A DNA stretch of 51,347 nt from Deltaproteobacteria bacterium (GTDB taxonomy: Bacteria; Desulfobacterota; Desulfomonilia; UBA1062), in contig JAFGIF010000260.1 in NCBI GenBank assembly GCA_016929755.1, positions 1 to 51,347 of the forward strand. Direction: 5' to 3'. Made by a program: the position numbers and the translations under genes. Positions 1 to 43,030 of this stretch are shown in pieces. How positions within the stretch are numbered: position 1 is the first letter of the stretch; the number at the start of each line of letters is the position of its first letter. The notes under the pieces were generated by a model. The model saw only the letters and a program-made list of their open reading frames with translations. It was not told where the DNA came from and did no database searches.

Positions 1-219
1 GGCGGAGACCAATTCTATGAGGAAGACAACAGCGATATTTACGATGACTGCTCCGGCGGTTACGACCCGCATACCAACGTCGATATTATCCTGGGATATA
101 AATTTAGCCACTACCAACTGTCACTGAGAGTCAACAACGTCAGCGATAACAAATACTGGGAGGGAACATCCGAAAATCCCGGCCGCACCTTTATGGCGAA
201 GGTAAGTGCCACTTTCTAG
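1..219 (+). CDS. TonB-dependent outer-membrane receptor, C-terminal fragment (5' end outside window)
   Basis: Frame 1 is open from the window edge to TAG at 217-219. The translation ...ILGYKFSHYQLSLRVNNVSDNKYWEGTSENPGRTFMAKVSATF ends in a terminal Phe after alternating hydrophobic residues, the usual last beta-strand of TonB-dependent receptors. It is followed by exbB-exbD-tonB. Confidence 0.6.
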   Translation, partial: GGDQFYEEDNSDIYDDCSGGYDPHTNVDIILGYKFSHYQLSLRVNNVSDNKYWEGTSENPGRTFMAKVSATF

Positions 220-242: not shown

Positions 243-284
243 ACGCCCTGAATTGCATACTTGCAATTCAGGGCGTATTTATTT
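243..284 (+). terminator. Rho-independent terminator downstream of the receptor gene
   Basis: Perfect 15-bp inverted repeat ACGCCCTGAATTGCA (243-257) / TGCAATTCAGGGCGT (262-276) with the 4-nt loop TACT, followed by ATTTATTT (277-284). Confidence 0.8.
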
Positions 285-314: not shown

Positions 315-872
315 ATGGAATGGCTGGATAAAAGCGGCGTGGTCGGATACATCCTGGCGGGAATCTCGGTTGTTACCCTCGCTGTCTTTCTCGAACGGTT
401 TTTCATGCTGCAACTGGAACGCTACCGGATAAAAAAAGGCGCCGGAATCATGGCAAAGATAAAAATGCTGATCGACGACAATTTCGGAATGAACATATCC
501 CGGCTGGAAGATCTGGTCTCTTTCAGGGCTGAAGAGGAAATCGAACGGATCTCATCCGGGATCGGACTGATCCGGTTGTCTTCCGCGGTCTCACCCCTGC
601 TGGGCCTGCTCGGAACCGTTCTGGGGATGATCGAGTCCTTCAAACAGGTATCCGAAATGGGCGGAAGCGTGAAACCGGCGGTTCTGGCTTCCGGCATCTG
701 GGTGGCACTACTGACGACTGCCGAAGGTCTCGTGATTGCAATAACCGCCTTTTTAATGCACCACTACCTGCAGTTCGTGGTATCCAGGATCGGTAAATAT
801 ATAATTCGCGAGGCGGATAAACAGATCATCGGAGTTCAAAATGATTCGGCTGAATCGCAACCACAAAAATGA
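315..872 (+). CDS. exbB: MotA/TolQ/ExbB proton-channel family protein
   Basis: 185 aa with three hydrophobic segments. The C-terminal half (LLGLLGTVLGMIESF ... GIWVALLTTAEGLVIAI) is typical of ExbB/TolQ. AAGGAG lies 5 nt upstream of the ATG. exbD and tonB follow. Confidence 0.85.
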   Translation: MEWLDKSGVVGYILAGISVVTLAVFLERFFMLQLERYRIKKGAGIMAKIKMLIDDNFGMNISRLEDLVSFRAEEEIERISSGIGLIRLSSAVSPLLGLLGTVLGMIESFKQVSEMGGSVKPAVLASGIWVALLTTAEGLVIAITAFLMHHYLQFVVSRIGKYIIREADKQIIGVQNDSAESQPQK

Positions 873-1233
873 TGCTTCGTCCACAATTGAAATCACCCCG
901 CTGGTGGACGTTGTTTTCCTGCTGCTGATCTTTTTCCTGCTGACGGCGACTTACTTCCATCCTTCCATGGACCTGACACTGCCTGAAGCCGAATCAGCAA
1001 CCCATCAGGAACACGAAGAGCCCATCACCATTGCCATTTCAGAGTATGGCGAGATCGAGATCAACAACGTTAGCGCAACCCTGGAAGACATTGCCCGCAT
1101 TCCAATAAATTCTCCGGTGCTGATCCTGGAAGATAAAACCGGGCCCTATGGGACTTTCATTGAAGTACTCGACACCCTTCGGATCAGTGGAATCGAAAAA
1201 ATATCCATAGTAACCGATGAAAAAACTGAGTAG
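841..1233 (+). CDS. exbD: ExbD/TolR biopolymer transport protein
   Basis: 130 aa with an N-terminal TM segment carrying the IEITPLVDVVFLLLIFFLL motif characteristic of ExbD/TolR. Overlaps exbB by 32 nt. Confidence 0.85.
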   Translation: MIRLNRNHKNDASSTIEITPLVDVVFLLLIFFLLTATYFHPSMDLTLPEAESATHQEHEEPITIAISEYGEIEINNVSATLEDIARIPINSPVLILEDKTGPYGTFIEVLDTLRISGIEKISIVTDEKTE

Positions 1234-1861
1234 AATTATCTTATTCCTGGCGATTTCAATAATCGTTCATATGAGCATCACCCAACTGCTGGAATCTACC
1301 CAAACCAAACAAACGCCCTATCAGAGCGTTGCGGTCTCCATCATTAAAGCGGTCAAACCGGAAGAGGAAATACCCGAACCACCTCCTCCGCCTCCACCTC
1401 CCCCAAAGCCGAAACCCAAGCCTAAGCCGAAACCAAAACCCGAGCCTATCCCGGAACCCGAACCGGAACCAGTCCCACAACCAGAGGTGGTTGAATCACC
1501 ACCTTCTCCTGAGCCCGTCATTATGGCTGAACCTCAGGCAACGCCGCTCCCACAGCCTGCGCAGGTGAATCATGCCAGGTTAAAAAAGGATTACCGATCT
1601 CTGGTGGAATCCATTATCCGTAATAATATCTATTATCCTCAAAGCGCCCGCAGACGCAATATTCAAGGTACGGTCGAAGTCCTGTTCACTATTAACGAGC
1701 ACGGAGAAATCTCGGATATCAAGATCACCAGATCATCGGGAAGCTCTCTTCTTGACAAGGCCGCTATCTATACCCTTAAAAAATGCACCTTCCCTCCGCC
1801 TCCGTCCGATCCGATGGAATATCCGATACCGATAACATACAAACTGATGGAGGCATCTTGA
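1217..1861 (+). CDS. tonB: Energy transducer TonB
   Basis: 214 aa with an N-terminal membrane anchor and a Pro-rich spacer PPPPPPPPPKPKPKPKPKPKPEPIPEPEPEPVPQPE (about nt 1375-1480). The C-terminal TonB domain reads YPQSARRRNIQGTVEVLFTINEHGEISDIKITRSSGSSLLDKAA. Overlaps exbD by 17 nt. Confidence 0.85.
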   Translation: MKKLSRIILFLAISIIVHMSITQLLESTQTKQTPYQSVAVSIIKAVKPEEEIPEPPPPPPPPPKPKPKPKPKPKPEPIPEPEPEPVPQPEVVESPPSPEPVIMAEPQATPLPQPAQVNHARLKKDYRSLVESIIRNNIYYPQSARRRNIQGTVEVLFTINEHGEISDIKITRSSGSSLLDKAAIYTLKKCTFPPPPSDPMEYPIPITYKLMEAS

Positions 1862-1865
1862 GGAT

Positions 1866-2675
1866 ATGCAGTCTATGATTGAAATCAGCACGTTGGAATT
1901 TTCATATATCAATAAAACCTCGGTATTTACTGATATATCATTTTCACTCCCAGCAGGAAGACTGTGTGCACTTATGGGTGGCAACGGTTCGGGTAAAACA
2001 ACTCTGCTGAAATGCATTGCCGGGCTCCTGGTTCCTTCGCATGGAACCATCTCAATTGCGGGAACCCGGATCAGCAAACTTACGAAACGACAACGTGCCC
2101 GCCGGATGAGTATGGTTCCCCAGGAACATTCAACCGTATTCCCCTACACGGTTGAAAACATGGTGCTGATGGGCAGGGCTCCCTATATCGACGCATTCGC
2201 CATGCCCGGAGAGGATGATCTGTCCGTTGCGTATCAGGCCATGCAGGAAGTCGGCATCGAACATCTGGCCCACAAAATGTACTCTCAGATCAGCGGGGGC
2301 GAACGGCAGCTGGTCCTGATCGCCCGGTCTTTGGCCCAGAACACCCCGATCATGCTCCTGGATGAACCTACCAGCCACCTCGACTATCGCAACCAGATTC
2401 TGACCATGTCAATCGTCAGACGCCTGGTCAAGGAAAAGGGCTTTCTGGCTCTGATCGCCACTCACGATCCTAACCATGCCCTGTTCTTTGCCGATACGGT
2501 AATCATCCTGCACCAGGGGCGTATCCTGAGAAACGGTCCATCCGGAGAGGTGATAAATCGCGACAATATCAGCACGGTCTACGGCATTGAAGTACAGGAA
2601 ATCCGGGATCATGATAAAATCAGATGGATCATGCCGGATGTGGAAATCCTCAATCACAGGAGAGATCCGCAATGA
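1866..2675 (+). CDS. ABC transporter ATP-binding protein (FepC/FecE/BtuD type)
   Basis: Walker A GGNGSGKTT, ABC signature ISGGERQ and Walker B IMLLDEPTSHLD. The start could instead be the ATG at 1875. Confidence 0.9.
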   Translation: MQSMIEISTLEFSYINKTSVFTDISFSLPAGRLCALMGGNGSGKTTLLKCIAGLLVPSHGTISIAGTRISKLTKRQRARRMSMVPQEHSTVFPYTVENMVLMGRAPYIDAFAMPGEDDLSVAYQAMQEVGIEHLAHKMYSQISGGERQLVLIARSLAQNTPIMLLDEPTSHLDYRNQILTMSIVRRLVKEKGFLALIATHDPNHALFFADTVIILHQGRILRNGPSGEVINRDNISTVYGIEVQEIRDHDKIRWIMPDVEILNHRRDPQ

Positions 2676-3703
2676 TTCGAGGCCGACGCTTGTGCATGCT
2701 GATACTCCCAGTGGCGCTGTTTGTGATCCCGGCCTGTCAGCCAGTACAGTCCAAAGGAGAAACCCACGCCACGAGAGTCATAACCGATATGACAGGCAGA
2801 CAGGTACAGATCCCGGGCGAGGTCAGACGGGTTGTTACCGCCATGTACCCCATCGCCACCCAGCTAATGTTCCTGGTGAGTGCCCAGGAGAGCCTTGTGG
2901 GTATATCGGATTATGACATTAACGATGTCATGCTGCGTATCTATCCTCCTATGAAAGACATTTACCGTCCGGCGCGCTCTAATGGCGGGGAAATTTCGGT
3001 TGAAGAAATCATCAAGATGAAGCCGGATGTGGTCTTCTGCCATATGCGCAACGCCCGCGAGCATACCTTGAAAAACCTTGACATCGCCAGGGTGATTCTG
3101 AGACTTGAAAATCCCGAAGCCCTCATGCAGGGTATACTTCTGGTCGGCGACATCATGAACAGAACCGAGCAAGCCTGCAAGGTAGTGCATTACTACCGCT
3201 CGAAACTCGATTATATCAAACGCCGCACCGCCGGAATCAACCCGAAAAAAACAGTCTATTTTGCCGGTCCGGCCAAGCTCAGCACCGCCGGGGGGGACTT
3301 CTTCCAGAATTTTGTGATCGAGTATGCCGGTGGAATAAATGTCGGCCGGGAAGGTCGCGGCGGCTGGTGCTCGATTTCCATCGAACATCTCCTGGCCTGG
3401 AACCCGGACTGCATCTTCATCGGCAACTACGGCACGGCATCCATTGAAAGTTTTACAGGCGATCCCCGGCTCAGAGATATCTCGGCCGTGAAAAAAGGGG
3501 ATGTCTACATGTCGCCATACTACATTGGTTCCTGGGATGTACCCACGCCTGAATCCGTACTGGGTATTATGTGGCTGGCAAACATCCTTTACCCTGAAGC
3601 CGTTGCCTTTGATATGGCCAAAGAGATGAACGAGTTTTATACATTCTGCTACGGGTACACCCCTAAGCACGATGAGATTGCCCGCGTCCTGGGGGAAAAA
3701 TGA
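2672..3703 (+). CDS. ABC transporter periplasmic substrate-binding protein (Fe-siderophore/haem/corrinoid class), probable lipoprotein
   Basis: I chose the ATG at 2672 (ATGA overlap with the ATPase stop) rather than the ORF-track start at 2624. The N-terminus MIRGRRLCMLILPVALFVIPAC looks like a signal peptide ending in Cys. The body resembles the Peripla_BP_2 family and is a paralogue of 6713-7675. Confidence 0.85.
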   Translation: MIRGRRLCMLILPVALFVIPACQPVQSKGETHATRVITDMTGRQVQIPGEVRRVVTAMYPIATQLMFLVSAQESLVGISDYDINDVMLRIYPPMKDIYRPARSNGGEISVEEIIKMKPDVVFCHMRNAREHTLKNLDIARVILRLENPEALMQGILLVGDIMNRTEQACKVVHYYRSKLDYIKRRTAGINPKKTVYFAGPAKLSTAGGDFFQNFVIEYAGGINVGREGRGGWCSISIEHLLAWNPDCIFIGNYGTASIESFTGDPRLRDISAVKKGDVYMSPYYIGSWDVPTPESVLGIMWLANILYPEAVAFDMAKEMNEFYTFCYGYTPKHDEIARVLGEK

Positions 3704-4707
3704 GAAAAGTCCAGCACTACCTTGTCTACCTTATAGTGCTCAATATTTTAATGTTCTGCCTCTCCATGTTTCTGGGCCGGTATCATATTCCCATGGGAGA
3801 GGTTATTAACGCTATTTTCTCACCAATCATAACAAGTGGCTCGGAACCATCACGCATTGTCACAACCGTACTGTTCCATGTGCGCCTGCCAAGAATCCTG
3901 CTGGCAATGCTGATCGGGGCCGGACTTGGAATTACCGGGGCATCCTTCCAGGGCATTTTCAGAAATCCCCTGGTATCGCCCTATATACTGGGGGTCTCCT
4001 CGGGCGGCGGGTTCGGCGCAGCCCTGGCGATTCTGCTCTTTAACAGCCCCATGGCAATACAGATCCTGGCTTTTGTATTCGGCATGCTGGCCGTGGGAAT
4101 TACCTATTTTATCGCCCTTCTCGGGTACCGGATTTCAACCTATACCCTGGTCCTGGCCGGCATTGTAGTCGGATCATTTTTTACCGCCCTCATTTCACTA
4201 TTGAAATATGTGGCCGACATTTACACCAAACTACCGGCCATCGTATTCTGGCTCATGGGTTCCCTGGCAGCGGTGGATATATCCGATATGTTGCGCACAG
4301 GACCAATTATCGCGGTGTGCATAATTGTGCTGATCATGCTCAGGTGGCGCTTCAACATACTCTCTCTTGGCTCTCAGGAGGCCAAAACGCTCGGAATTAA
4401 TACAACGGTACTCTATTTGGTGATCATAACCCTATCCACGGTTATCGCCGCCTCGATCGTTGCCATCGCAGGCATAATCGGCTGGGTCGGTCTGGTGGTC
4501 CCGCACCTGTGCCGCATGATGGTGGGGGCGGATCATGAAAAACTGCTGCCGGCCTCTGCCCTGATGGGTTCGGCCTACATGCTCATGGTGGATGATGTCG
4601 CCCGGACTCTGGTATCACAAGAAATTCCCCTGGGAATCGTAACCGCTATCATTGGTGCACCGTTCTTCGCATATCTGCTGAAACGCCGCCGAGGAGGCAA
4701 ACCATGA
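3700..4707 (+). CDS. ABC transporter permease, FecCD/BtuC family
   Basis: 335 aa and highly hydrophobic. Typical FecCD strings are LPRILLAMLIGAGLGITGASFQGIFRNPLVSPYILGVSSG and GWVGLVVPHLCRMMVGADH. ATGA overlap with the upstream gene. Confidence 0.9.
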   Translation: MRKVQHYLVYLIVLNILMFCLSMFLGRYHIPMGEVINAIFSPIITSGSEPSRIVTTVLFHVRLPRILLAMLIGAGLGITGASFQGIFRNPLVSPYILGVSSGGGFGAALAILLFNSPMAIQILAFVFGMLAVGITYFIALLGYRISTYTLVLAGIVVGSFFTALISLLKYVADIYTKLPAIVFWLMGSLAAVDISDMLRTGPIIAVCIIVLIMLRWRFNILSLGSQEAKTLGINTTVLYLVIITLSTVIAASIVAIAGIIGWVGLVVPHLCRMMVGADHEKLLPASALMGSAYMLMVDDVARTLVSQEIPLGIVTAIIGAPFFAYLLKRRRGGKP

Positions 4708-6716
4708 TTTATCCGCTCTCGACCCTGTATGCCGGATCCGTGGAACAAATCCCGTTCTTCCATTACTACCCAGGGCACAAAGCGCTCATCATCGGCACCT
4801 ACGGCTGTAACCTTGATTGCAAGTACTGCATGAACCAGCATCTGCTCAACGAACCGTCGAACTTCTTCGACCTTGCACCCGCACAGGTCGCTGCAAAGGC
4901 CAAGACAAGCGGGTGCGATCTGATCAGTTTCAGTGCCAATGAACCGGCCGTAAGCTTCGACTATTTCATCGATATCGCCGAGGCCGCCAAAGAGTATGGA
5001 ATTATAACCGGTTGCAGCACAAACGGCCTTTTTAATGACTCCCAACTCGACAAACTCAAAAACAGCATCGCTTTCGCCAATGTAAGCCTCAAGGGACCGT
5101 CCGAACAATTTTACCATGAAATGTGCTCTGCCGGCTCTCCGCAACGGGTGCTTACCACCGTGAACGAATTGCATGCCAACTCTGTCCACGTCGAGGTTAC
5201 CACACCCTATGTGCCCTTGATCACCCCTGACGAAATGTTTTCAATGGCTGAAATGATCGGGAACGTCAGCCCTCACATTCCCTGGCATATCTTCAGGCTG
5301 TTGCCGGAATACAAGCTGACGGACATTGCCCAACCAGGTATCGACGACCTGCTCGAAATGAAAAACCGCGTTCTGAAATACCTTTTGTACATCTACCTGG
5401 AGAATTTCGCCAGTTCGCACTGGGTAGATACCTGCTGCCCGCAATGCGATTCTCTGCTGTTGCAGCGTATCAGCACCCGCGGTTGCGGGGCCCACTTAAT
5501 GAAAATTCAGATAACCGACGGGGCCTGTCCGGTCTGCAGCCGACCCGTGGATATTATCGGCCAAGCCGCGATTGTAGATTTACTCAGTCTGGATGAAGTC
5601 GATCCCCGAACCGGGCTCATTGACGTGGGAGGATGGCAGAGCTACGTTGATATGGGATCCGGGGTTCCCAAAACCGAAGGACAGCAAAGTCCGGCTCGCC
5701 ATATCATTTCAAAACATCCCTATCCCGGAGATATGAATTTCGAGGCCGACCAATGGGTAGTCGATGTAGCCCTCGACATCATCCCCGAGATTAAACCCGA
5801 CCTTATGGTACTGACTTTTTCCCAGCCGTCACTGGTGGGCAGGCATATGCCGGATATAGAAACCTACCGGAGCTTTGTAAACAACACCATATCCGAAGTG
5901 GAACGTTTTATCAGCCAAGCCGCAATGGAGTATCTCATCGTAGGTTTGGGCGATCTGAATGATACCAAGGGCGTCATCAACCTGGAACAACATATCCGGG
6001 GAGCGGCATCGGCTGATGAGGGCATTGCCTGTCTTTACGATTGCACACCCGTAGATGCCGAGCGCGTTAAACAGCTCGAAGGAGTTCAGGCTGTTATAAC
6101 CAGGCAAGAGATGCAAACCCGTCTCGGCCATGCCCTTGATCCGGACATCTTCGGGACATTTTTTGTATTGGCTCACAGCGGTTATCAGTTTCTGGCACTG
6201 TCTTCGAGCAGCAGATATGCCTACCGACAACCGGCCCAGGACACTCGCATACCCGTAATGACATCTCTCGATCGTTCCCCCGGCTCGATCAGGGACATCC
6301 GGGAAATAGCAGGCGAAATCGTAATCAGACAAAAACGCAGACTGGCCCTGATCCTGATCGAAGGCATCGGCTTAAAAACGTTCCCTCTCGATTCACAACC
6401 GGCAGATAATTCAATCAACGGGATTGTCTACAGTTCGACTTTGCTGCAGTACATGGTGATCAGCACCGGTCAGGCGGTGTTTCCGACCTTTTTCGGCTAT
6501 CCCCTCTGGAAAACATCACCATTGGTCAATCCGTTTTCCCGACACACCCCTTTCCTGCAAAGCTGTCTCACCCGGGATATCATTGCAGCAGGCATGAAAT
6601 CCGTGAGTATAGGAAATCGCAGCATTATGACCCACACGGCATTTCCAGCCTCATTGAGCGTCGAATGTCACTGCGCATCCCTGCACAACTACGGTTCTTT
6701 GGAGGTGACTCTATGA
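4704..6716 (+). CDS. Radical SAM enzyme (PflA/AmmeMemoRadiSam-like core plus Cys4 ribbon) fused to an unassigned ~380-aa C-terminal domain
   Basis: CX3CX2C motif GCNLDCKYC (C35/C39/C42, nt 4806-4829). Cys-rich ribbon CCPQC...C...CPVC (residues 244-278, nt 5433-5537). I cannot assign residues ~290-670 to a family. ATGA overlaps on both sides (4704-4707 and 6713-6716). Confidence 0.8.
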   Translation: MIYPLSTLYAGSVEQIPFFHYYPGHKALIIGTYGCNLDCKYCMNQHLLNEPSNFFDLAPAQVAAKAKTSGCDLISFSANEPAVSFDYFIDIAEAAKEYGIITGCSTNGLFNDSQLDKLKNSIAFANVSLKGPSEQFYHEMCSAGSPQRVLTTVNELHANSVHVEVTTPYVPLITPDEMFSMAEMIGNVSPHIPWHIFRLLPEYKLTDIAQPGIDDLLEMKNRVLKYLLYIYLENFASSHWVDTCCPQCDSLLLQRISTRGCGAHLMKIQITDGACPVCSRPVDIIGQAAIVDLLSLDEVDPRTGLIDVGGWQSYVDMGSGVPKTEGQQSPARHIISKHPYPGDMNFEADQWVVDVALDIIPEIKPDLMVLTFSQPSLVGRHMPDIETYRSFVNNTISEVERFISQAAMEYLIVGLGDLNDTKGVINLEQHIRGAASADEGIACLYDCTPVDAERVKQLEGVQAVITRQEMQTRLGHALDPDIFGTFFVLAHSGYQFLALSSSSRYAYRQPAQDTRIPVMTSLDRSPGSIRDIREIAGEIVIRQKRRLALILIEGIGLKTFPLDSQPADNSINGIVYSSTLLQYMVISTGQAVFPTFFGYPLWKTSPLVNPFSRHTPFLQSCLTRDIIAAGMKSVSIGNRSIMTHTAFPASLSVECHCASLHNYGSLEVTL

Positions 6717-7675
6717 AACTTTTGTATCGCATCGGATTTTCAATAGTTTGTTTCATGCTGTTGTATCTGCCTGCCTCACATGCCAGACATATCGTGGACA
6801 TGATGGGCCGCACCGTAGAGGTGCCGGTAAAAATTGAACGGGTCGCATCGCCCTATCGAATCGCAACCGAGATGATCATTACACTCGGAGCTCAGGATAA
6901 ACTGGTGGGAGTCTCCACTGTGCCCGGTGATATCATTAAACATTATTTCCCCGATATAACAAATTTATCCTTAGCCGACAGGCATTCCAGTGTTGAAGAA
7001 TTTCTGCGCATGAAGCCGGACGTGATCTTCACGACCTACTCGCCGGTGGTCGACAAACTGGCACAATCCGGCATCAGTGTATTCTGCATGAAGGTTGAAA
7101 ATCCCGATTCCATGCTTGAAGGGATGCTCATGATCGGTGATGTCCTTAACAAAACAGAACAGGCCCAAAACTTTGCTCGCTATTTCAAAGCCAAACTCGA
7201 TCACATCGAAGCCATGACCAAGGCCATTACACCCAAGAAAGCAGTATATGTTGTCGGACCTAAGATACTTATAACCGTGGGAGGTGACTTTTACCAAAAT
7301 TTTATCGTACAGTATGCTGGCGGAATCAACGTCGCCCGGGATCTCAGGGGAGGGTGGGTACCTGTTTCCCGCGAGCATCTGATCGCCTGGGATCCGGATG
7401 TTTTCATCACCATCGGCTATACGGCCATGGACCCCTCGCAGATTAAAAATGATGCCGGGCTGGCTCCGCTGAAGGCCCTTAAAACCAACGCCATCTACAT
7501 CTTTCCCAGCTATATCGATTCCTGGGATATGCCAACACCGGAATCACTTCTTGCCATCATGTGGCTGGCAAATATTCTGTATCCTGAAAAGGTCAACTTC
7601 GATATGCACAAAGAGGCCCGCGAGTTTTACCTAAAATTCTACGGCAGCTATCCCCAAGAGGTCAGACTCAATTGA
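6713..7675 (+). CDS. Second ABC transporter periplasmic substrate-binding protein (paralogue of 2672-3703)
   Basis: I chose the ATG at 6713 (GGAGGTG upstream, ATGA overlap) rather than 6665. Signal peptide MKLLYRIGFSIVCFMLLYLPASHA. Shares long strings with the first binding protein: GGDF(F/Y)QNF, YAGGINV, RGGW, EHL(L/I)AW(N/D)PD, SWD(V/M)PTPES, MWLANILYPE. Confidence 0.85.
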   Translation: MKLLYRIGFSIVCFMLLYLPASHARHIVDMMGRTVEVPVKIERVASPYRIATEMIITLGAQDKLVGVSTVPGDIIKHYFPDITNLSLADRHSSVEEFLRMKPDVIFTTYSPVVDKLAQSGISVFCMKVENPDSMLEGMLMIGDVLNKTEQAQNFARYFKAKLDHIEAMTKAITPKKAVYVVGPKILITVGGDFYQNFIVQYAGGINVARDLRGGWVPVSREHLIAWDPDVFITIGYTAMDPSQIKNDAGLAPLKALKTNAIYIFPSYIDSWDMPTPESLLAIMWLANILYPEKVNFDMHKEAREFYLKFYGSYPQEVRLN

Positions 7676-8232
7676 GAAATCGCAACACACTGGTTATTCT
7701 GACAGGACTGAGAGGCTGCGGAAAAACAAGCCTTCTGAAAAATCTGATCGAACGCCATGACCTTAATGTCCAGGGTTTTCTGAGCTGCAAGGAATTCAGC
7801 GGCTCTTTGATGACAGGCATCAATCTTGTTGTCCTGCCCGGGAAAACATCCATGCCAATGGCAACCACGACCCCGTTTTCCACCCCGGTTAGCACAGGGC
7901 GGTTTTATTTCTTTTCGGAAACATTCGGGCTTATAGAGCGCCATTTCAATACAATCAGACCCAAGATACCGTTTATTTTCGATGAGTTTGGTCAATTGGA
8001 GATGAGACAGGAGGGCCACTATCCCCTGTTTCAAAAACTCATTGAGAAAAACCATCCGTTGCTGCTGGTGGTACGTAAAGAAATGCTTGAAGAATTTCTG
8101 GCATCTTTGCCACAAGAAACCCTCTTTAACATCTTCGATATGGATGAAATGATTCATCAAGATATTAACAACTGTATGTTGGAATTTCTGGAAAATCCGG
8201 CATCCGCATGTACAACGAACAAGACTTATTGA
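7672..8232 (+). CDS. P-loop NTPase, THEP1/NTPase_1-like
   Basis: 186 aa with Walker A GLRGCGKTS at residues 12-20 and a Walker B-like IFDEFGQLEM, comparable to the IDEIGKME string of THEP1-type NTPases. The only start codon upstream of the P-loop is TTG at 7672, which overlaps the preceding stop (TTGA). Confidence 0.6.
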   Translation: MRNRNTLVILTGLRGCGKTSLLKNLIERHDLNVQGFLSCKEFSGSLMTGINLVVLPGKTSMPMATTTPFSTPVSTGRFYFFSETFGLIERHFNTIRPKIPFIFDEFGQLEMRQEGHYPLFQKLIEKNHPLLLVVRKEMLEEFLASLPQETLFNIFDMDEMIHQDINNCMLEFLENPASACTTNKTY

Positions 8233-38049: not shown

Positions 38050-40371
38050 ATGAGTATTGAGAAACAGCTGCATACCATTACCAGGCCGACACGTTATCTC
38101 GGCAGTGAAATCAACCAGATTGTAAAACCCGCAGAAGAAGTAAGGGTTCGCATTGCCCTGGCTTTTCCGGATGTCTATGAAATCGGGATGTCGCATGCCG
38201 GTATAAAGATCCTCTATCAAATCCTGAATGCCATGCCCGGAGTCTGGGCTCAAAGAGTTTTTGCCCCCTGGCACGACATGGCCGCGGCCCTTAAAGAAAC
38301 GGACACTCCCCTGTTTAGCCTTGAAGAACAGCGACCTCTGCGCCAATTTGATATTCTCGGATTCTCCCTGCTCTATGAACTCTCTTACAGCACCGTAATC
38401 AGAATGCTCAAGCTGGGGCGCATTCCCACCTATGCCGCACAACGAACCAAGGATGACCCCATTGTAATAGCAGGCGGCACCTCCACAGCCAATCCCACCC
38501 CGTACCAGGACTTCTTCGACCTTGTGGCCATAGGTGACGGGGAACAGATCGTTGAGGAAATTGCCCGCATCTGCCTCCAAACCGGGGAGCGTACAGAACG
38601 AATCCTTGCCATCGCCGACCTCTCCGGCATATACCGACCCGGCACCAAAAAAACACCAAGGAGAAGCATCCTGCCTGACCTGGATTCGTACCCGTTTCCA
38701 AACCATCCGGTGCTGCCCAACACATCCATCGTGCATGACCGGCTGGGAGTTGAAGTGGCTCGCGGATGTACCCGGGGTTGCAGGTTCTGCCAGGCCGGTA
38801 TGATTTACCGGCCGTATCGGGAGCGTTCGCTTTCATCGGTAATGAACACTTTCGATAGGGGTCTCAAGGCAACCGGATACGACGAAATCTCCATGCTGGC
38901 GCTGTCCGTGACCGATTTAAGCTATCTGGATTCAATCATGACCTCTCTGTATTGTCCATCCAGAGAGATTTCTGTAGGGATTCCCTCCATGCGGGTCGAA
39001 GGCCTGCCCAAAAGCGTGACGGATCTGCTTTCGTCGGTCAAAAAACCGGGATTCACGCTGGCACCGGAAGCAGCCAGTGAAAAACTCAGAACCATCATCA
39101 ACAAGGGCAATACCGAAGATGATCTGTTTCGAACCGTGCGGTGCAGCCGTGAGTTCGGGTGGAAGTCATTAAAACTCTACTTCATGATCGGTTTACCCGG
39201 CGAGACCGAAGCGGACCGCGTTGCCATCTGTGATTTGTCAAAAAGAATCGCCAGAGAATTCAAAGGCAGGATCACGGTGAGCATATCGGCCTTTATTCCA
39301 AAACCGTTCACGCCCTTCCAGTGGGAATCACAGATATCGCCGGAGAGGCACCAGGTGTGGCTGGATTTTTTCCATCAAAATATTCGCGATCGCCGCATTT
39401 CACTCAAATGGCAGGATCCCCCGTTGACGTTTCTCGAGGGGGTCTTTTCACGTGGTGATTCCAGGCTTGCCAAGGTGATCGTTGAGGCGGAAGAAAATGG
39501 AGCCTATCTGGATGGCTGGGTTGATACGTTCAACTTCAAGGCCTGGCAGGATGCATTTAAAAACAACGGCATAGACCCGAACGAATATCTCGCAGAGAGA
39601 GATCCGCAGCAAAACCTGCCCTGGGAATTTATCGACATGCGCATCAAAAAAGACTTTCTGCTGAAAGAACGCTCTCTGGCCTATGAAATCAGCCCGACTC
39701 CCGACTGCAGGGAAGGCCTCTGCAGCGACTGCGGCACATGTGAGAGCGAGATAGACAATATTGTCAGGAAAAAGGTCAAGCCAATACAGATATTCAAAAA
39801 ACCCGTGACATCACAGAATATACCCTATGTAATCGGGCTTACAAAACATGACGTTCTGAAATTCACAGCCCCCAGTGACTGGGTGGAGATGATCAAGCGC
39901 ACTATCCGCAGAGCACAGCTCCCCGCAGTCTATTCCCGGGGCTACAGCCCCGGCATGAAGCTCAGCCTGATTCCGCCCACATCCTTTGGTATCGAATCTT
40001 CCAGCGAATATTTCCAGTTCGAACTCAGGCAAGAAATCGAACCGGACCTCATTATCTCACGGCTTGGGAAGCATTTGCCCAAGGGCGCCGCAATCTTCGA
40101 GTGCTTCAAAGGGAAGTTGCCAAAGGTCGAAGCGTACATATACAGGCTCAAAAAACCACTCCATCTCACTCTAAAAGTTGATTCCTGTATTGAAAAAGGA
40201 TCTTCGCTGTTAAAGGTTCATGATTACCTTACACAACCCGACGAAAAAACACTCGAAATTCGGTTTATTGAGGGCAGAACACTCTCCCCGATGATGATAG
40301 CCCAATCGTTTGCCAAAGAGCCGCTAATTCCGCAAGATATTACTAAGATCAAGACGATCTTTTGTGAGTGA
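38050..40371 (+). CDS. Radical SAM protein of the TIGR03960 type fused to a DUF2344 (TIGR03936-type) domain
   Basis: The N-terminus ITRPTRYLGSEINQ ... ALAFPDVYEIGMSHAGIKILY and CX3CX2C in ARGCTRGCRFCQAG match my recollection of TIGR03960. The C-terminal ~200 aa (IRRAQLPAVYSRGYSPGMKLSLIPPTSFGIESSSEYFQFEL) resembles DUF2344. The ATG directly abuts the stop of the MBL gene. Confidence 0.8.
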   Translation: MSIEKQLHTITRPTRYLGSEINQIVKPAEEVRVRIALAFPDVYEIGMSHAGIKILYQILNAMPGVWAQRVFAPWHDMAAALKETDTPLFSLEEQRPLRQFDILGFSLLYELSYSTVIRMLKLGRIPTYAAQRTKDDPIVIAGGTSTANPTPYQDFFDLVAIGDGEQIVEEIARICLQTGERTERILAIADLSGIYRPGTKKTPRRSILPDLDSYPFPNHPVLPNTSIVHDRLGVEVARGCTRGCRFCQAGMIYRPYRERSLSSVMNTFDRGLKATGYDEISMLALSVTDLSYLDSIMTSLYCPSREISVGIPSMRVEGLPKSVTDLLSSVKKPGFTLAPEAASEKLRTIINKGNTEDDLFRTVRCSREFGWKSLKLYFMIGLPGETEADRVAICDLSKRIAREFKGRITVSISAFIPKPFTPFQWESQISPERHQVWLDFFHQNIRDRRISLKWQDPPLTFLEGVFSRGDSRLAKVIVEAEENGAYLDGWVDTFNFKAWQDAFKNNGIDPNEYLAERDPQQNLPWEFIDMRIKKDFLLKERSLAYEISPTPDCREGLCSDCGTCESEIDNIVRKKVKPIQIFKKPVTSQNIPYVIGLTKHDVLKFTAPSDWVEMIKRTIRRAQLPAVYSRGYSPGMKLSLIPPTSFGIESSSEYFQFELRQEIEPDLIISRLGKHLPKGAAIFECFKGKLPKVEAYIYRLKKPLHLTLKVDSCIEKGSSLLKVHDYLTQPDEKTLEIRFIEGRTLSPMMIAQSFAKEPLIPQDITKIKTIFCE

Positions 40372-40561
40372 TCCGGAAGTCACCACCTTCAATGGTCCTT
40401 GCTATGGCTTTTATTCATTCCTCCTTTTAACCAAATCAGATCTGATATCTGTTCAGTATGACTCTTTGTTCTATCCCTCTATGACATAAAATTTTGACCA
40501 CGCTTGCTTGAATATGGAAATTTTTACCCTATTTTAAACTGACATGCCAAGGGAGTATATA

Positions 40562-43030
40562 ATGGAAGCCAAAAAAAAGTGCTGTGAGCACAAACCCAAT
40601 AACAATCATATCTACAAAGACCCTGTCTGCTCTATGACCACAGATGAAAAAGACGACTACCTGGCTTATGAATACCAGGGCACTACATATTATTTCTGCT
40701 GCCAGCACTGTAAGGATAAATTTATAAAAAATCCGGATTTATATCTTACCTCAAAAGAAATCCCTTCCCCGTTCTTCCAGCCTGAACTGCCATCCACACA
40801 GGCTGCATTCACCTGCCCGATGTGTCCGGACATCCGGCAGGATACACCGGGATCGTGTCCTAAGTGCGGAATGGCGCTCGAGCCGCTTATACCGGCAATG
40901 CCTGTGCTCCAAACGCAATGGACCTGTCCCATGCATCCGGACATCGTCCAAGATGAGCCCGGTACATGCCCAAAATGCGGCATGGCCCTTGAGCCCGTGA
41001 CCTCTGAGGCCCTTGAAGAGGAAAACCCTGAGTATGCCTATATGAAAAATCGTCTCTGGATCGCTGCCGTGCTGACGATTCCCCTCATGATCATTGCCAT
41101 GCGCGAGCTCTTTCCCATCCTGGCCCTTAACAACCTTGCATCTGCTACGGTATACGGCTACCTTGAGCTGCTGCTCGCAACACCGGTTGTACTGTGGTGT
41201 GGCTGGCCGTTTTTTGTGCGCGCTTGGCGCTCGCTTGCCAACAGGAGTCCGAACATGTTCACCCTGATCGGCCTAGGGGTAAGCGTGGCCTACGGCTACA
41301 GTCTCCTGGCTGTAGTAATGCCGGACATGTTTCCGGCATCCGTGCGCAAACCAGACGGCACCCTGGGAATCTACTTTGAAGCCTCAGCGGTAATCGTGAC
41401 CCTGGTTTTGTTGGGTCAGGTACTTGAATTAAAAGCACGCAGTAAAACCGGAGAGGCAATCAAGGCGCTGTTGAACCTGGCACCCAAAACCGCCAGGCGG
41501 ATCAATATAGACGGCTTGGAAGAAGATACTGCGCTCGATACGGTTCAGCCCGGAGACCGGTTGCGCATCAGACCGGGAGAAAAAGTCCCTGTGGATGGAA
41601 CCGTGCTGGAAGGTTCGAGCAGTGTCGACGAATCAATGATTACCGGGGAGCCCATACCGGAGGTAAAACGGCCGGGAGATGCCATAATCGGTGCCACGAT
41701 CAACACGAATGGTACTCTCATCATGGAAGCCCGAAAAGTCGGGGCTCAAACGCTTTTATCGCAGATCATAGCCATGGTCGCTCAGGCACAGCGAAGCCGG
41801 GCGCCAATCCAGCGCCTCGCCGACAGGGTAGCGGCCTATTTCGTGCCCGCCGTAATTGCAAGCGCCGCGCTGGCCTTTATCATCTGGCTTTTGATCGGGC
41901 CGACACCCCGTCTGGCCTACGCTCTGATTGCCGCGGTCTCGGTATTAATTATTGCCTGCCCATGTGCCTTGGGACTCGCCACGCCCATGTCCATCATGGT
42001 TGCCGCCGGAAAAGGAGCCTCTCTCGGCGCCCTTTTCAAGGATGCCGAATTCATCGAAACCCTCAGGAAAGTCGACACGTTGGTGGTGGATAAAACCGGC
42101 ACCCTGACCGAAGGCCGTCCAAAACTTACATCAATAGTGCCTGCACCGGGCTGGGATAAAAGCCACCTGCTGTCCCTGGCAGCCAGCCTGGAAAAGGGCA
42201 GTGAGCATCCCCTGGCCGAAGCCATCGTTCAGGGTGCTCTCGATGAAGAGCTGCAACTGTCAGACGCGCTGGATTTTGAATCCATTGCGGGCAAAGGCGT
42301 CCTCGGCAGGGTTGATGGTCGCCGGGTTGGGCTTGGTAACCCCAAATTACTGCAGGAATTGAGCCTGGATTCAGAAAATCTGCTGGCGCAAGCCCAGGAG
42401 CTGTACTCTCAGGGACAAAGCGTCATGTTCGTTACGGTAGATGACCAGATTGCAGGATTCCTGGGGGTTTCCGACCCCATCAAGGCCACCTCGGCGCAGG
42501 CCATCGATCAACTGCATAGCGAGGGCCTGCGCATCGTTATGCTGACCGGAGACAATCATACCACGGCCGAGACGGTTGGTAAAAAGCTCCATATCGACGA
42601 GGTAATTGCCGAAGTAATGCCCCAAGAAAAGCAGCAAAAGATCCAGGCCCTGCAAAATACGGGGCACATCGTAGCCATGGCCGGCGACGGCATAAACGAT
42701 GCCCCCGCCCTGGCGCAGGCCCACGTCGGGATTGCCATGGGCACCGGCACCGATGTTGCCATGGAAAGCGCCGGGCTCACGCTGGTCAAGGGGGACCTGC
42801 TGGGCATAGTACGCGCCAGGCGCCTCAGCCGGGCTACCATGCGCAATATCAAGCAGAATCTCTTCTTTGCCTTTATCTACAATGTCATCGGGGTCCCGAT
42901 CGCCGCCGGGATTCTTTATCCGGCCTTCGGCCTCCTGCTCTCGCCGATGATCGCAGCCGCCGCCATGAGCTTTTCTTCGGTATCGGTAATTACAAATTCA
43001 CTGCGCTTGAGAAACAAAGACCTAGACTGA
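40562..43030 (+). CDS. copA: Copper-translocating P1B-type ATPase
   Basis: I chose the ATG at 40562 (AAGGGAG 6 nt upstream). Contains TGEP, the CPC motif ([13 protein letters not shown]), DKTGTLT, MLTGDN and GDGINDAP. The N-terminus is unusual (see findings). Confidence 0.9.
40808..40996 (+). repeat. Tandem duplication encoding two Cys-rich metal-binding modules in the CopA N-terminus
   Basis: [26 protein letters not shown] (nt 40808-40885) and [26 protein letters not shown] (nt 40919-40996). The repeat is visible in both the protein and the DNA. Confidence 0.75.

Follow-up and report, generated by a model that had tools for sequence, protein, structure and literature searches.

Known molybdenum and tungsten (Mo/W) homeostasis comprises the ModABC, TupABC, WtpABC and MolBC-A transporters, control by ModE or by riboswitches, storage by Mop proteins and the Moa/Moe/Mog pathway. 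To our knowledge, no radical SAM enzyme acts at the uptake stage, and we know of no chemistry for radical SAM enzymes of the AmrS type. A literature search (Moco riboswitch or modABC combined with radical SAM; molybdophore combined with TonB; AmmeMemoRadiSam) likewise found no such enzyme at Mo/W uptake, and nothing on the module described below. The supply of Mo/W to its enzymes in euxinic habitats has been raised as a question (PMC11484787). The window analysed here, a stretch of 51,347 nucleotides from a Deltaproteobacteria bacterium (contig JAFGIF010000260.1), encodes a 670-residue fusion of a radical SAM half and a C-terminal domain (C-domain). We propose, with a probability of roughly 0.55, that in this protein the two parts of a conserved cytoplasmic Mo/W-acquisition enzyme, an AmrS-like radical SAM protein and a protein of alkaline-phosphatase fold, are fused.

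The ORF reported in the first-pass annotation is present with an ATG start, and the claimed ATGA overlaps with transporter genes were found at both of its ends, namely at 4704-4707 (preceded by GAGGAGG at 4692-4698) and at 6713-6716 (preceded by GGAGGTG at 6701-6707). The fusion gene is translationally coupled within an operon that further encodes a receptor, ExbB-ExbD-TonB, a MolBC-A-type importer with two binding proteins, and an NTPase (Table 1). The signal peptide of binding protein 2 begins at the 6713 ATG rather than in the longer ORF from 6665. At the other end of the operon, residues 625-693 of the receptor of locus L005 matched window positions 4-210 (tblastn). A full-length receptor gene lies upstream in orthologous loci, and the P-loop NTPase gene is kept at the same position in such loci.

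Table 1. Features of the operon and of the fusion gene (window coordinates).
Feature	Position	Strand	Basis
TonB-dependent outer-membrane receptor, 3′ end, cut by window start, stop at 217-219	1-219	+	tblastn
Hairpin in receptor/exbB gap, 15-bp stem and T-rich tail, terminator/attenuator-like	243-276	+	
ExbB	315-872	+	Pfam MotA_ExbB, 83 bits
ExbD	841-1233	+	Pfam ExbD, 89.6 bits
TonB	1217-1861	+	Pfam TonB_C, 75.3 bits
Type II importer ABC ATPase, MolC-like	1866-2675	+	Pfam ABC_tran; HI1470, 136 bits
Binding protein 1, periplasmic, class III, MolA-like; true start maybe downstream of 2624	2624-3703	+	Peripla_BP_2
Permease, FecCD-type, MolB-like	3700-4707	+	FecCD, 293.6 bits
Radical SAM/alkaline-phosphatase-like C-domain fusion, 670 aa	4704-6716	+	ORF, ATG start
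CX3CX2C radical SAM cluster motif, C35/C39/C42	4806-4829	+	Translation, homologue alignments
Cys4 ribbon, invariant C245/C248/C275/C278	5436-5537	+	AmrS-model alignment, homologue alignment
C-domain, residues ~296-670, remote alkaline-phosphatase/NPP fold	5589-6713	+	Family alignment, Foldseek
Binding protein 2, periplasmic, signal peptide, 44% identical paralogue of binding protein 1	6713-7675	+	
P-loop NTPase, NTPase_1/THEP1-like, TTG start, last gene of the operon	7672-8232	+	Pfam NTPase_1, 38.8 bits

The N-terminal half belongs to the radical SAM superfamily (PF04055, 69.9 bits against a cut-off of 29.5). Its cluster motif had been correctly located: GCNLDCKYC spans G34 to C42, and the three cysteines do not vary among 10 close full-length homologues; in a set of 18 sequences, one of which is N-terminally truncated, their conservation is at least 90%. 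The ribbon CCPQC-x12-C-x13-CPVC likewise lies at residues 244-278 as described, and homologue alignment revealed that C244 and C261 vary, so that only the other four cysteines are invariant. The earlier reading of the first ~290 residues as AmrS/PflA-like also held, with TIGR04337 (AmrS) as top NCBIfam model, aligning over residues 12-282 including the Cys4 ribbon, and the pyruvate formate-lyase activase PFL-AE as top fold match (TMt 0.74) in a Foldseek search with the full-length model, which further matched NifB, BioB and MoaA. The curated TIGR04337 cut-off of 220 was missed both by the window protein (135.9 bits) and by the split partner of locus L097 (148 bits), and no AMMECR1 or Memo gene was called among the neighbours in the Pfam-annotated loci (L001-L006 and L088-L090). 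A role in glycyl-radical activation was rejected, because the activase models scored far under their cut-offs (TIGR02493 31.8/231.75, TIGR02494 33.6/174.35, TIGR02495 39.2/131.15) and neither a glycyl-radical partner nor its motif was found; none of the loci whose neighbours carry Pfam annotation had a glycyl radical enzyme call. We also set aside 17 GTDB loci (L017-L033) with standalone radical SAM genes of 24-33% identity and neither C-domain nor transporter, which are members of the wider AmrS-like family and not of the two-part module.

The C-terminal half had been described as lacking any sequence-level assignment, and our searches agreed with this: Pfam searches with the last 381 and the last 420 residues returned nothing at E<=10, and PDB sequence and profile searches gave no match beyond weak radical SAM hits or noise (e.g. 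PurE). When 30 family members were searched at E<=1, five scattered single-member Pfam matches to unrelated families appeared, and Phosphodiest, Metalloenzyme and Sulfatase were absent from the matches. Nevertheless, this half is not a chance ORF, since the full-length fusion has 23 homologue clusters (33-54% identity) and a confident AlphaFold model (pLDDT 86.8, pTM 0.89), the pTM suggesting a fixed arrangement of the two modelled domains.

Because the radical SAM half swamped Foldseek with the full-length model, the C-domain was modelled separately. Its sole significant matches were phosphonoacetate hydrolase (PhnA; 3szy/1ei6, E 1.6e-5 to 2e-4) and ENPP6 and ENPP7 (E 1e-3 to 4e-3), all with a probability of 1.0, followed by noise at 0.13 or below. 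The similarity covers about half the domain and is weak (TM 0.35-0.39 across 200-235 columns), and the modelled C-domain thus has an alkaline-phosphatase fold that is real but remote. The resemblance to alkaline-phosphatase-superfamily phosphodiesterases that had been noticed in KPDLMVLTFSQPSLVGRHMPD (residues 364-384) therefore stood at the level of the fold, while at the level of the metal ligands it did not extend across the family: judged from sequence, the candidate ligands D307 and D343 are mostly kept, but not H381 and D417, which distant members lack. Family-wide, P341, W351, Y576, G589, R639 and E654 are invariant, and D343, E553, S640, H644, C655 and G664 nearly so. The C-domain is a new, independent family of ~380 residues, a branch of that superfamily so far without annotation.

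An exhaustive search yielded only 110 representative clusters of this family in 1.84 billion, and a profile search with one family alignment added few new proteins. Most members stand alone at ~380 residues. Among 94 non-redundant loci, the C-domain is fused to a radical SAM domain in 18, and in another 60 its gene lies immediately downstream of an AmrS-like radical SAM gene (e.g. L006 and L090). In the Rosetta-stone sense, the fusion therefore points to a conserved pair, and the view of the C-domain as a mere activase extension gives way to that of an independent family, usually encoded by its own gene directly after the radical SAM gene. The association with transport genes is conserved among the homologue loci, as had been anticipated; in roughly 80 loci the pair, which has no characterised member, accompanies Mo/W importers and regulators of several kinds. 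Strict anaerobes, among them syntrophs and sulfate reducers, are the source of the named loci, and fermentation and bioreactor assemblies that of some of the metagenome contigs. The fusion is predicted to be cytoplasmic, as it carries an Fe-S domain and both fused and standalone forms start without an obvious signal sequence.

The first-pass annotation had named haem, corrinoids and ferric siderophores as candidate substrates, and both the transporter and the regulation of its relatives pointed elsewhere. MolBC-A is a molybdate/tungstate importer (PMC4031551). Among PDB entries, the permease ranked MolB (HI1471) first at 256 bits, ahead of FhuB (206), HmuU (178) and BtuC (136). For the ATPase, HI1470 came fifth at 136 bits, just behind FhuC (139.6) among bacterial importer ATPases, and both binding proteins matched MolA (HI1472) at 97-100 bits, with 97 bits for binding protein 1, as their third PDB match after two better ones without a stated ligand (4hn9 and 4ovk for binding protein 1). 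Taken together, permease, ATPase and binding proteins are related to MolBC-A, and by homology the transporter is of the molybdenum/tungsten importer type and not a siderophore, haem or B12 system.

In eight loci (L001, L119, L134, L140, L141, L144, L151 and L155), the operon of transporter, radical SAM and C-domain genes begins with a match to the Moco riboswitch family RF01055 that scores 58-76 bits, where the gathering score is 36, and the permeases of these operons are 42-55% identical to that of the window. In L097, bona fide modA-modB-modC genes are directly followed by the pair, with no receptor, and in L127 the pair is followed by ModE-ModD-modABC, all at or above NCBIfam cut-offs. Moreover, the ATPases of L001 and L004 bear TOBE extensions, and window-clade orthologous operons adjoin a Mop gene (L089), DUF364 genes (L088 and L005) and formate dehydrogenase/FdhE genes (L005). 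Rfam detected no riboswitch in the window or in its orthologues L002, L005, L009/L089 and L012/L088, and Fur and canonical ModE boxes upstream of window-clade receptor genes scored no better than in shuffles. The Mo/W link of the window operon rests on homology and neighbours, because its own 5′ regulatory region lies beyond the window start. Near the L002 operon lie genes for a glutaredoxin and for the beta subunit of a ferredoxin-thioredoxin reductase (FeThRed_B).

The two-part module is thus probably a step in the Mo/W acquisition of anaerobes, and not in that of iron, haem or B12. From the domain identities, the conserved pairing, the tie to Mo/W transporters and regulators and the predicted cytoplasmic location, we infer anion binding by the C-domain, a radical step and its target as follows. 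The operon of the relatives would be turned on when the molybdenum or tungsten cofactor is scarce, and the enzyme induced by this starvation would process or hand on imported molybdate or tungstate, or a thio or complexed form. In the C-domain, the usual two-metal phosphate site of the fold may have been replaced by its own set of Asp, Glu, Arg, Ser, His and Cys residues, which would bind the imported tetrahedral group-6 anion, either as molybdate/tungstate or, as is typical of sulfidic habitats, in a thio or complexed form. Tungstate, molybdate and vanadate bind active sites of the alkaline phosphatase superfamily as phosphate analogues. The radical SAM half would reductively cleave SAM, and the resulting 5′-deoxyadenosyl radical would act on the species held by the C-domain, or on a C-domain residue, to give a form able to enter cofactor synthesis. 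Several points count against this proposal: free molybdate, as far as we know, requires no radical chemistry before cofactor insertion, and nine solo C-domain loci (L162-L170) have no radical SAM or transporter gene nearby. The negative riboswitch, Fur-box and ModE-box results for the window clade, the partial fold match and the third rank of MolA weigh against it too. More tentatively, strict anaerobes might need a radical-SAM-dependent step that makes environmental Mo/W usable, for example by releasing the metal, once imported, from thiometalates or from other complexes of a sulfidic or organic kind, and the riboswitch-controlled pair could be that step.

It is unlikely, but deserves the most attention among the alternatives, that the radical SAM half is an activase or maturase within Mo/W acquisition, which would modify a C-domain residue (C655, S640 or G664 of the C-terminal hairpin) into the catalytic group of an alkaline-phosphatase-fold hydrolase, by analogy to the formylglycine made by anSME or the glycyl radical made by PFL-AE. 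The top fold match is indeed a protein-directed activase, the pairing is strictly 1:1 (fused or adjacent, often with overlapping genes) as in activase-substrate pairs, the partner fold is that of the sulfatases, and the low-confidence loop 659-662 next to the ECHC motif may be flexible in the model. However, Pfam found no SPASM domain in the fusion (NCBIfam SPASM families matched the core only, at ~20 bits), and neither a C/S-x-P-x-R sulfatase motif nor an RVxG-type glycyl radical motif or glycyl-radical-enzyme barrel is present; the activase-family scores and the solo C-domain clade count against this scheme as well.

Rather less plausibly, the pair could cooperate with SAM methyltransferases, DUF364 and TrmO-like proteins encoded nearby in making a SAM-derived extracellular molecule that captures Mo/W and is re-imported as a complex via the TonB receptor and type II importer. 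SAM-using enzymes are enriched around the pair (a methyltransferase gene in 28/94 loci, a TrmO_N-FmdE fusion in 5, DUF364 in several), the only characterised DUF364 enzyme is a SAM cyclase (PMC12930334), and large chelates are the usual cargo of such receptor-importer systems. Against this, the pair of L097 stands directly behind a plain modABC, an importer of the free anion, without a receptor; no exporter, NRPS or NIS genes occur among the recurrent neighbours, and many operons consist of transporter and pair only.

A part in cofactor biosynthesis is improbable. Here the nucleotide bound by the NPP-like domain would be GTP or a cofactor dinucleotide, and a MoaA-like or salvage reaction would fall to the radical SAM half, in line with the relation of the fold matches to nucleotide pyrophosphatases/phosphodiesterases and with weak MoaA matches to the core (~30 bits). 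Moco riboswitches, moreover, typically control moa genes besides transporters. Yet the recurrent neighbours of the pair are transporters and not moa, moe or mog genes, the MoaA scores reflect generic similarity of radical SAM cores, and, judged from sequence, the catalytic residues canonical for NPPs do not seem to be conserved.

The earlier reading, in which the radical SAM enzyme processes the cargo of a siderophore, haem or B12 uptake operon, comparable to ChuW/HutW, has become very improbable. Such cargo is usual for FecCD/Peripla_BP_2/TonB systems, weak NCBIfam matches to BtuF, IsdE and FecB-type models exist, and the redox genes close to the L002 operon would fit; but among solved relatives with an assigned ligand MolB and MolA come closest, the scanned loci contain eight Moco riboswitches and no cobalamin riboswitch, relatives adjoin modABC, ModE, ModD, Mop and TOBE, and no Fur box stands out. 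ChuW-like haem degradation was rejected as the fusion is not HemN/ChuW-like, and B12 salvage on the riboswitch result and on MolB as nearest solved permease. Finally, there is very little to recommend detoxification, by methylation and radical chemistry, of look-alike oxyanions (e.g. tellurite, selenite, arsenate or chromate) entering via Mo/W importers. Methyltransferases, one weakly TehB-like, do recur in these loci and speak for it, but they are lacking from the window operon and most loci, and Moco-riboswitch control fits supply rather than stress.

As a two-part Mo/W-acquisition enzyme, the pair would be a defined candidate for a missing step of Mo/W supply under sulfidic anoxia, the open question of PMC11484787, and would give an AmrS-like radical SAM enzyme its first functional context. 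It would also add to the alkaline phosphatase superfamily a branch with a putatively rebuilt active site, and likely correct the annotation of many 'iron complex'/FecCD transporters of anaerobes. Should a radical SAM step indeed free environmental Mo/W, the pair would stand as a new class among metal-acquisition enzymes and offer a direct handle on euxinic Mo/W supply (PMC11484787).

Compared with known systems, the operon shares with MolBC-A (HI1470/71/72) a homologous permease, ATPase and both binding proteins, with MolB as top PDB match; beyond these, it encodes a TonB-dependent receptor with ExbBD-TonB, one more binding protein, the fusion protein and an NTPase, and Mo/W is its predicted cargo. 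As with ChuW/HutW, a radical SAM enzyme is encoded within an uptake operon and presumably acts on imported cargo under anoxia, although ChuW/HutW belong to another, HemN-like clade, serve another cargo and have no alkaline-phosphatase-like partner. The pairing of a radical SAM enzyme with an alkaline-phosphatase-superfamily protein recalls anSME and its sulfatase, whereas anSME is SPASM-type and targets C/S-x-P-x-R, both absent from the window module. Phosphonoacetate hydrolase, ENPP6 and ENPP7 are matched in fold, and the PDL...GRH string recalls the metal-ligand strand of NPPs, yet the conserved set is family-specific and no sequence profile of that clade matches. PFL-AE (3c8f/3cb8) is the top structural match to the radical SAM half (TMt 0.71-0.74) and of the same small partial-barrel activase type, in contrast to its subthreshold family score and the lack of a glycyl radical partner or motif here. 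AmrS, finally, differs in the scores of window protein and split partner (136-148 bits against 220), in the first ~55 model positions, which the window clade lacks, and in that the partner is the C-domain in a context of Mo/W transport, and not AMMECR1/Memo in the Pfam-annotated loci; at the same time, it is the top family match both for residues 12-282 and for the separate partners of split loci, and its N-terminal Cys-rich segment is kept in distant fused relatives and split partners.

Translation confirmed the open reading frame of the fusion, a protein that joins a radical SAM half to a C-terminal domain (C-domain, residues ~296-670), and with it the features listed by the first-pass annotation, namely the radical SAM motif C35-x3-C39-x2-C42, the Cys ribbon CCPQC-x12-C-x13-CPVC at residues 244-278 and the PDL...GRH string at residues 364-384. 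The overlaps claimed for both gene ends were found as well: the ATG at 4704 shares bases with the TGA of the permease gene and is preceded by the Shine-Dalgarno sequence GAGGAGG, and the stop codon (6714-6716) shares bases with the ATG at 6713, where, behind GGAGGTG, the signal peptide MKLLYRIGFSIVCFMLLYLPASHA of binding protein 2 begins. Because of this GGAGGTG and signal peptide, binding protein 2 was taken to start at 6713 rather than at 6665, where a longer mechanical ORF begins. Fragments aside, fusion homologues formed 23 clusters (626-740 residues, 33-54% identity). The three Cys of the cluster motif are conserved, as are four of the ribbon (C245, C248, C275, C278), and the AlphaFold model of the full-length fusion was confident (pLDDT 86.8, pTM 0.89). 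The gene is thus real; in source records the protein is named 'radical SAM protein' or 'pyruvate formate lyase activating enzyme'.

The sole Pfam match of the N-terminal half was Radical_SAM (residues 30-184), and its best NCBIfam model was the AmmeMemoRadiSam radical SAM enzyme TIGR04337, which spanned residues 12-282 (ribbon included) with 135.9 bits (cut-off 220). Activase, MoaA and SPASM models scored only 18-39 bits, and Foldseek placed the PFL-activating enzyme at the top (TMt 0.74), ahead of NifB, SuiB, BioB and MoaA. This half is therefore AmrS/PflA-like, as the first-pass annotation had it, yet belongs to neither curated family. The TIGR04337 match begins at model position 56 in the window protein versus 12 in the split partner of locus L097; an N-terminal Cys-rich segment is kept by the distant fused relatives P0021-P0023 and lost by the window clade (the loci orthologous to the window operon).

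The C-domain had been called unassignable, and at the sequence level it remained so: the window domain gave no Pfam match at E<=10 and no PDB match by sequence or profile, and 30 family members yielded only scattered weak Pfam matches to unrelated families. A model of residues 296-670, built on an alignment of 30 sequences, was nevertheless confident (pLDDT 88.5, pTM 0.91). Its sole significant Foldseek matches in the PDB, all with probability 1.0 and followed by noise, were phosphonoacetate hydrolase (E 1.6e-5 to 2e-4) and ENPP6 and ENPP7 (E 1e-3 to 4e-3), so that the suspected alkaline phosphatase/NPP likeness holds at the level of the fold, even if partially (TM 0.35-0.39 across 200-235 columns). 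The accompanying caveat on metal ligands also stands, since distant members differ at putative ligand positions, H381 and D417 among them. The residues that are invariant (P341, W351, Y576, G589, R639, E654) or near-invariant (D343, E553, S640, H644, C655, G664) across the family form a different set. In the full-length model, pLDDT fell below 50 only at residues 44-47, 79-82 and 659-662, corresponding to the loop that follows the cluster motif, to the SAM-binding motif NEPA and to a hairpin loop beside the conserved ECHC motif; all three may belong to a single active site and depend on ligand.

When 1.84 billion representatives were searched exhaustively with a profile, only 110 C-domain matches were returned, including ~8 fused (650-735 residues) and ~40 full-length standalone proteins (~380 residues). 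At L006 and L090, the standalone gene lies directly 3′ of, and overlaps, a radical SAM gene of 335-338 residues. With 80 further loci from a metagenome scan, the non-redundant set comprised 94 loci. The question of whether the fusion is conserved or split received a mixed answer: fusion recurs (18/94), but the commonest form is two genes, with an AmrS-like radical SAM gene immediately upstream of the C-domain gene (60/94). The C-domain gene lies at a contig edge in seven loci, and the remaining nine form a 'solo' clade in housekeeping context. The C-domain is thus an independent family, and the fusion is the Rosetta stone for its pairing with the radical SAM protein. Members of the solo clade (L162-L170) are 35-38% identical to the standalone query alignment of the metagenome scan and have no adjacent radical SAM or transporter gene, their neighbours being DUF1648, thioesterase, BacA, FolD and MutS-like genes. 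L140 carries two C-domain genes and a single radical SAM gene in one riboswitch-controlled operon. In the uncultured Desulfovibrio MAG that carries L016, a receptor gene and an ATPase-like ORF of unusual length precede the fused gene, which is seen there as two ORFs that overlap and differ in frame, a form that could reflect a frameshift, pseudogene or assembly error.

The window begins within the 3′ end of a TonB-dependent receptor gene, followed by ExbB, ExbD, TonB, ABC ATPase, binding protein 1, FecCD permease, the fusion, binding protein 2 and a P-loop NTPase. The proposed link to transport was borne out, as this gene order is shared by Syntrophaceae, Desulfomonilia, Thermodesulfobacteriota and other MAGs; synteny with a Syntrophaceae genome was found for the genes 3′ of the operon. 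Among solved structures, HI1471/MolB was clearly the closest relative of the permease (256 bits, versus 206 for FhuB, 178 for HmuU and 136 for BtuC), and both binding proteins matched MolA (HI1472) with 97-100 bits, below two proteins without stated ligand. The importer thereby resembles MolBC-A, the type II molybdate/tungstate importer of Haemophilus influenzae (PMC4031551, PMC4245157). The two binding proteins are paralogues (44% identical) that serve one permease/ATPase pair and flank the enzyme gene on either side; they may carry different cargo, such as Mo versus W species. The strong hairpin between receptor and exbB may be a partial terminator setting the receptor-to-transporter expression ratio. 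The NTPase holds this position in 11 family loci, and it could act as a metallochaperone-like partner. Remaining window genes are housekeeping (aminoacyl-tRNA synthetases, ArgG/ArgH, DapA/DapB, LysA, MgtE, UvrD), apart from a second, unrelated radical SAM protein and a P-type ATPase.

Coordinates of features in the window and in related loci (L numbers)
Locus	Position	Feature
Window	217-219	receptor stop codon
Window	243-276	hairpin: 15-bp stem, 8 G-C pairs, T-rich tail
Window	315	exbB
Window	2624-3703	binding protein 1
Window	4704-6716 (+)	fusion, 670 residues
Window	6713-7675	binding protein 2
Window	7672-8232	P-loop NTPase, end of operon: NTPase_1/THEP1-like, weak DUF2478 match, TTG start overlapping binding protein 2 stop
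Window	38050-40371	773-aa radical SAM protein (Radical_SAM_N2 + DUF2344)
Window	40544-43030	heavy-metal P-type ATPase (YHS + HMBD domains)
L117	3322-4152	methyltransferase
L127	6182-7003	methyltransferase
L004	13282-14088	methyltransferase
L158	9125-9787	methyltransferase
L126	10966-11775	TrmO_N-FmdE fusion
L005	19612-20466	DUF4213/DUF364
L088	13349-14092	DUF4213/DUF364
L004	19080-19925	DUF4213/DUF364
L122, L123, L138		DUF4213/DUF364
L140	3243-4508; 6784-7968	two C-domain genes
L016	9581-12012	fused gene as two ORFs
L088	5000-5021	TATAT(A)...ATATA inverted repeat
L089	3421-3444	TATAT(A)...ATATA inverted repeat

Related loci tied the pair to molybdenum/tungsten (Mo/W). The Moco/Tuco riboswitch RF01055 (58-76 bits; gathering score 36) heads operons with transporter, radical SAM and C-domain genes in L001, L119, L134, L140, L141, L144, L151 and L155, whose permeases are 42-55% identical to that of the window; it was found in 7 of 18 newly scanned loci, and precedes a paralogous transporter in L004. 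The gene order is modA-modB-modC-radical SAM-C-domain in L097 and receptor-methyltransferase-radical SAM-C-domain-ModE-ModD-modA-modB-modC in L127; their modA, modB, modC and ModD matches exceed NCBIfam cut-offs, and the L127 ModE has its repressor domain exactly at, and its Mop domain well above, the cut-off. TOBE-type extensions occur on the ATPases of L001 and L004. Within the window clade, the NTPase of L089 is directly followed by a Mop/TOBE gene of 74 residues, and L088 and L005 carry DUF364, the latter along with formate dehydrogenase and FdhE. Classical Mo markers were present in 21 loci, and these and/or a FecCD-type system in 57 of the 78 fused or split loci, the others being mostly short contigs. 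None of the scanned loci showed a cobalamin riboswitch, and no Fur box stood out 5′ of receptor genes. Because the window clade showed no riboswitch (Rfam) and no convincing ModE box, and the window's own promoter region lies beyond the window, its probable Mo/W assignment rests on transporter homology, enzyme orthology and suggestive neighbours. Inverted repeats in L088 and L089, and a shared word, TATATATGC, that also occurs in L005, lie 30-60 nt upstream of receptor start codons. The repeats have spacings of 10 versus 12; these elements scored neither as Fur box nor as ModE box, and could form an operator particular to the clade or just be parts of the promoters.

Tungstate, molybdate and vanadate are classical ligands of the alkaline phosphatase superfamily. 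The two conserved parts of the module are obligatorily paired and attached to Mo/W import and regulation, and beyond this we infer the following mechanism. Because the C-domain is cytoplasmic, shares its fold with enzymes that bind tetrahedral anions in their active sites, and conserves an invariant Arg and Glu next to near-invariant Ser, His, Cys, Asp and Glu, we propose that it would hold the group-6 anion after import, either as such or in a thio or complexed form. The radical SAM half would then act on the held ligand or on the C-domain itself, and usable metal would be delivered to cofactor synthesis. The pair also accompanies plain modABC, an argument that the species in question need not be a large chelate and can be free anion.

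Two other explanations are less probable. By analogy with anSME and sulfatase, the radical SAM half might be a maturase, with which its activase-type fold and its 1:1 pairing with the C-domain are consistent. Alternatively, the module might serve ligand biosynthesis, as suggested by an enrichment of SAM-using neighbours: a SAM-dependent methyltransferase gene, in no case of a named NCBIfam family, adjoins the pair in 28/94 loci, and five loci carry a fusion of a TrmO-type SAM-binding domain to FmdE, a domain from the molybdenum formylmethanofuran dehydrogenase operon. DUF4213/DUF364 genes also adjoin the operons; DUF364 has been reported beside Mo/W/V transporters (PMC2954201, bioRxiv 10.1101/2024.03.05.583561) and its sole characterised member is a SAM cyclase (PMC12930334), which hints at SAM-derived chemistry in Mo/W handling.

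A literature search found no paper describing the radical SAM and C-domain module, and the question of how Mo reaches anaerobes in sulfidic habitats has been raised in the literature (PMC11484787). By the families' own criteria, the window protein is no member of AmrS, PflA, anSME or NPP, and there is a substantial chance that the module's chemistry is categorically new. Its two nearest logical analogues are ChuW/HutW, radical SAM enzymes embedded in uptake operons, and anSME with sulfatase, a radical SAM maturase paired with an alkaline-phosphatase-fold enzyme.
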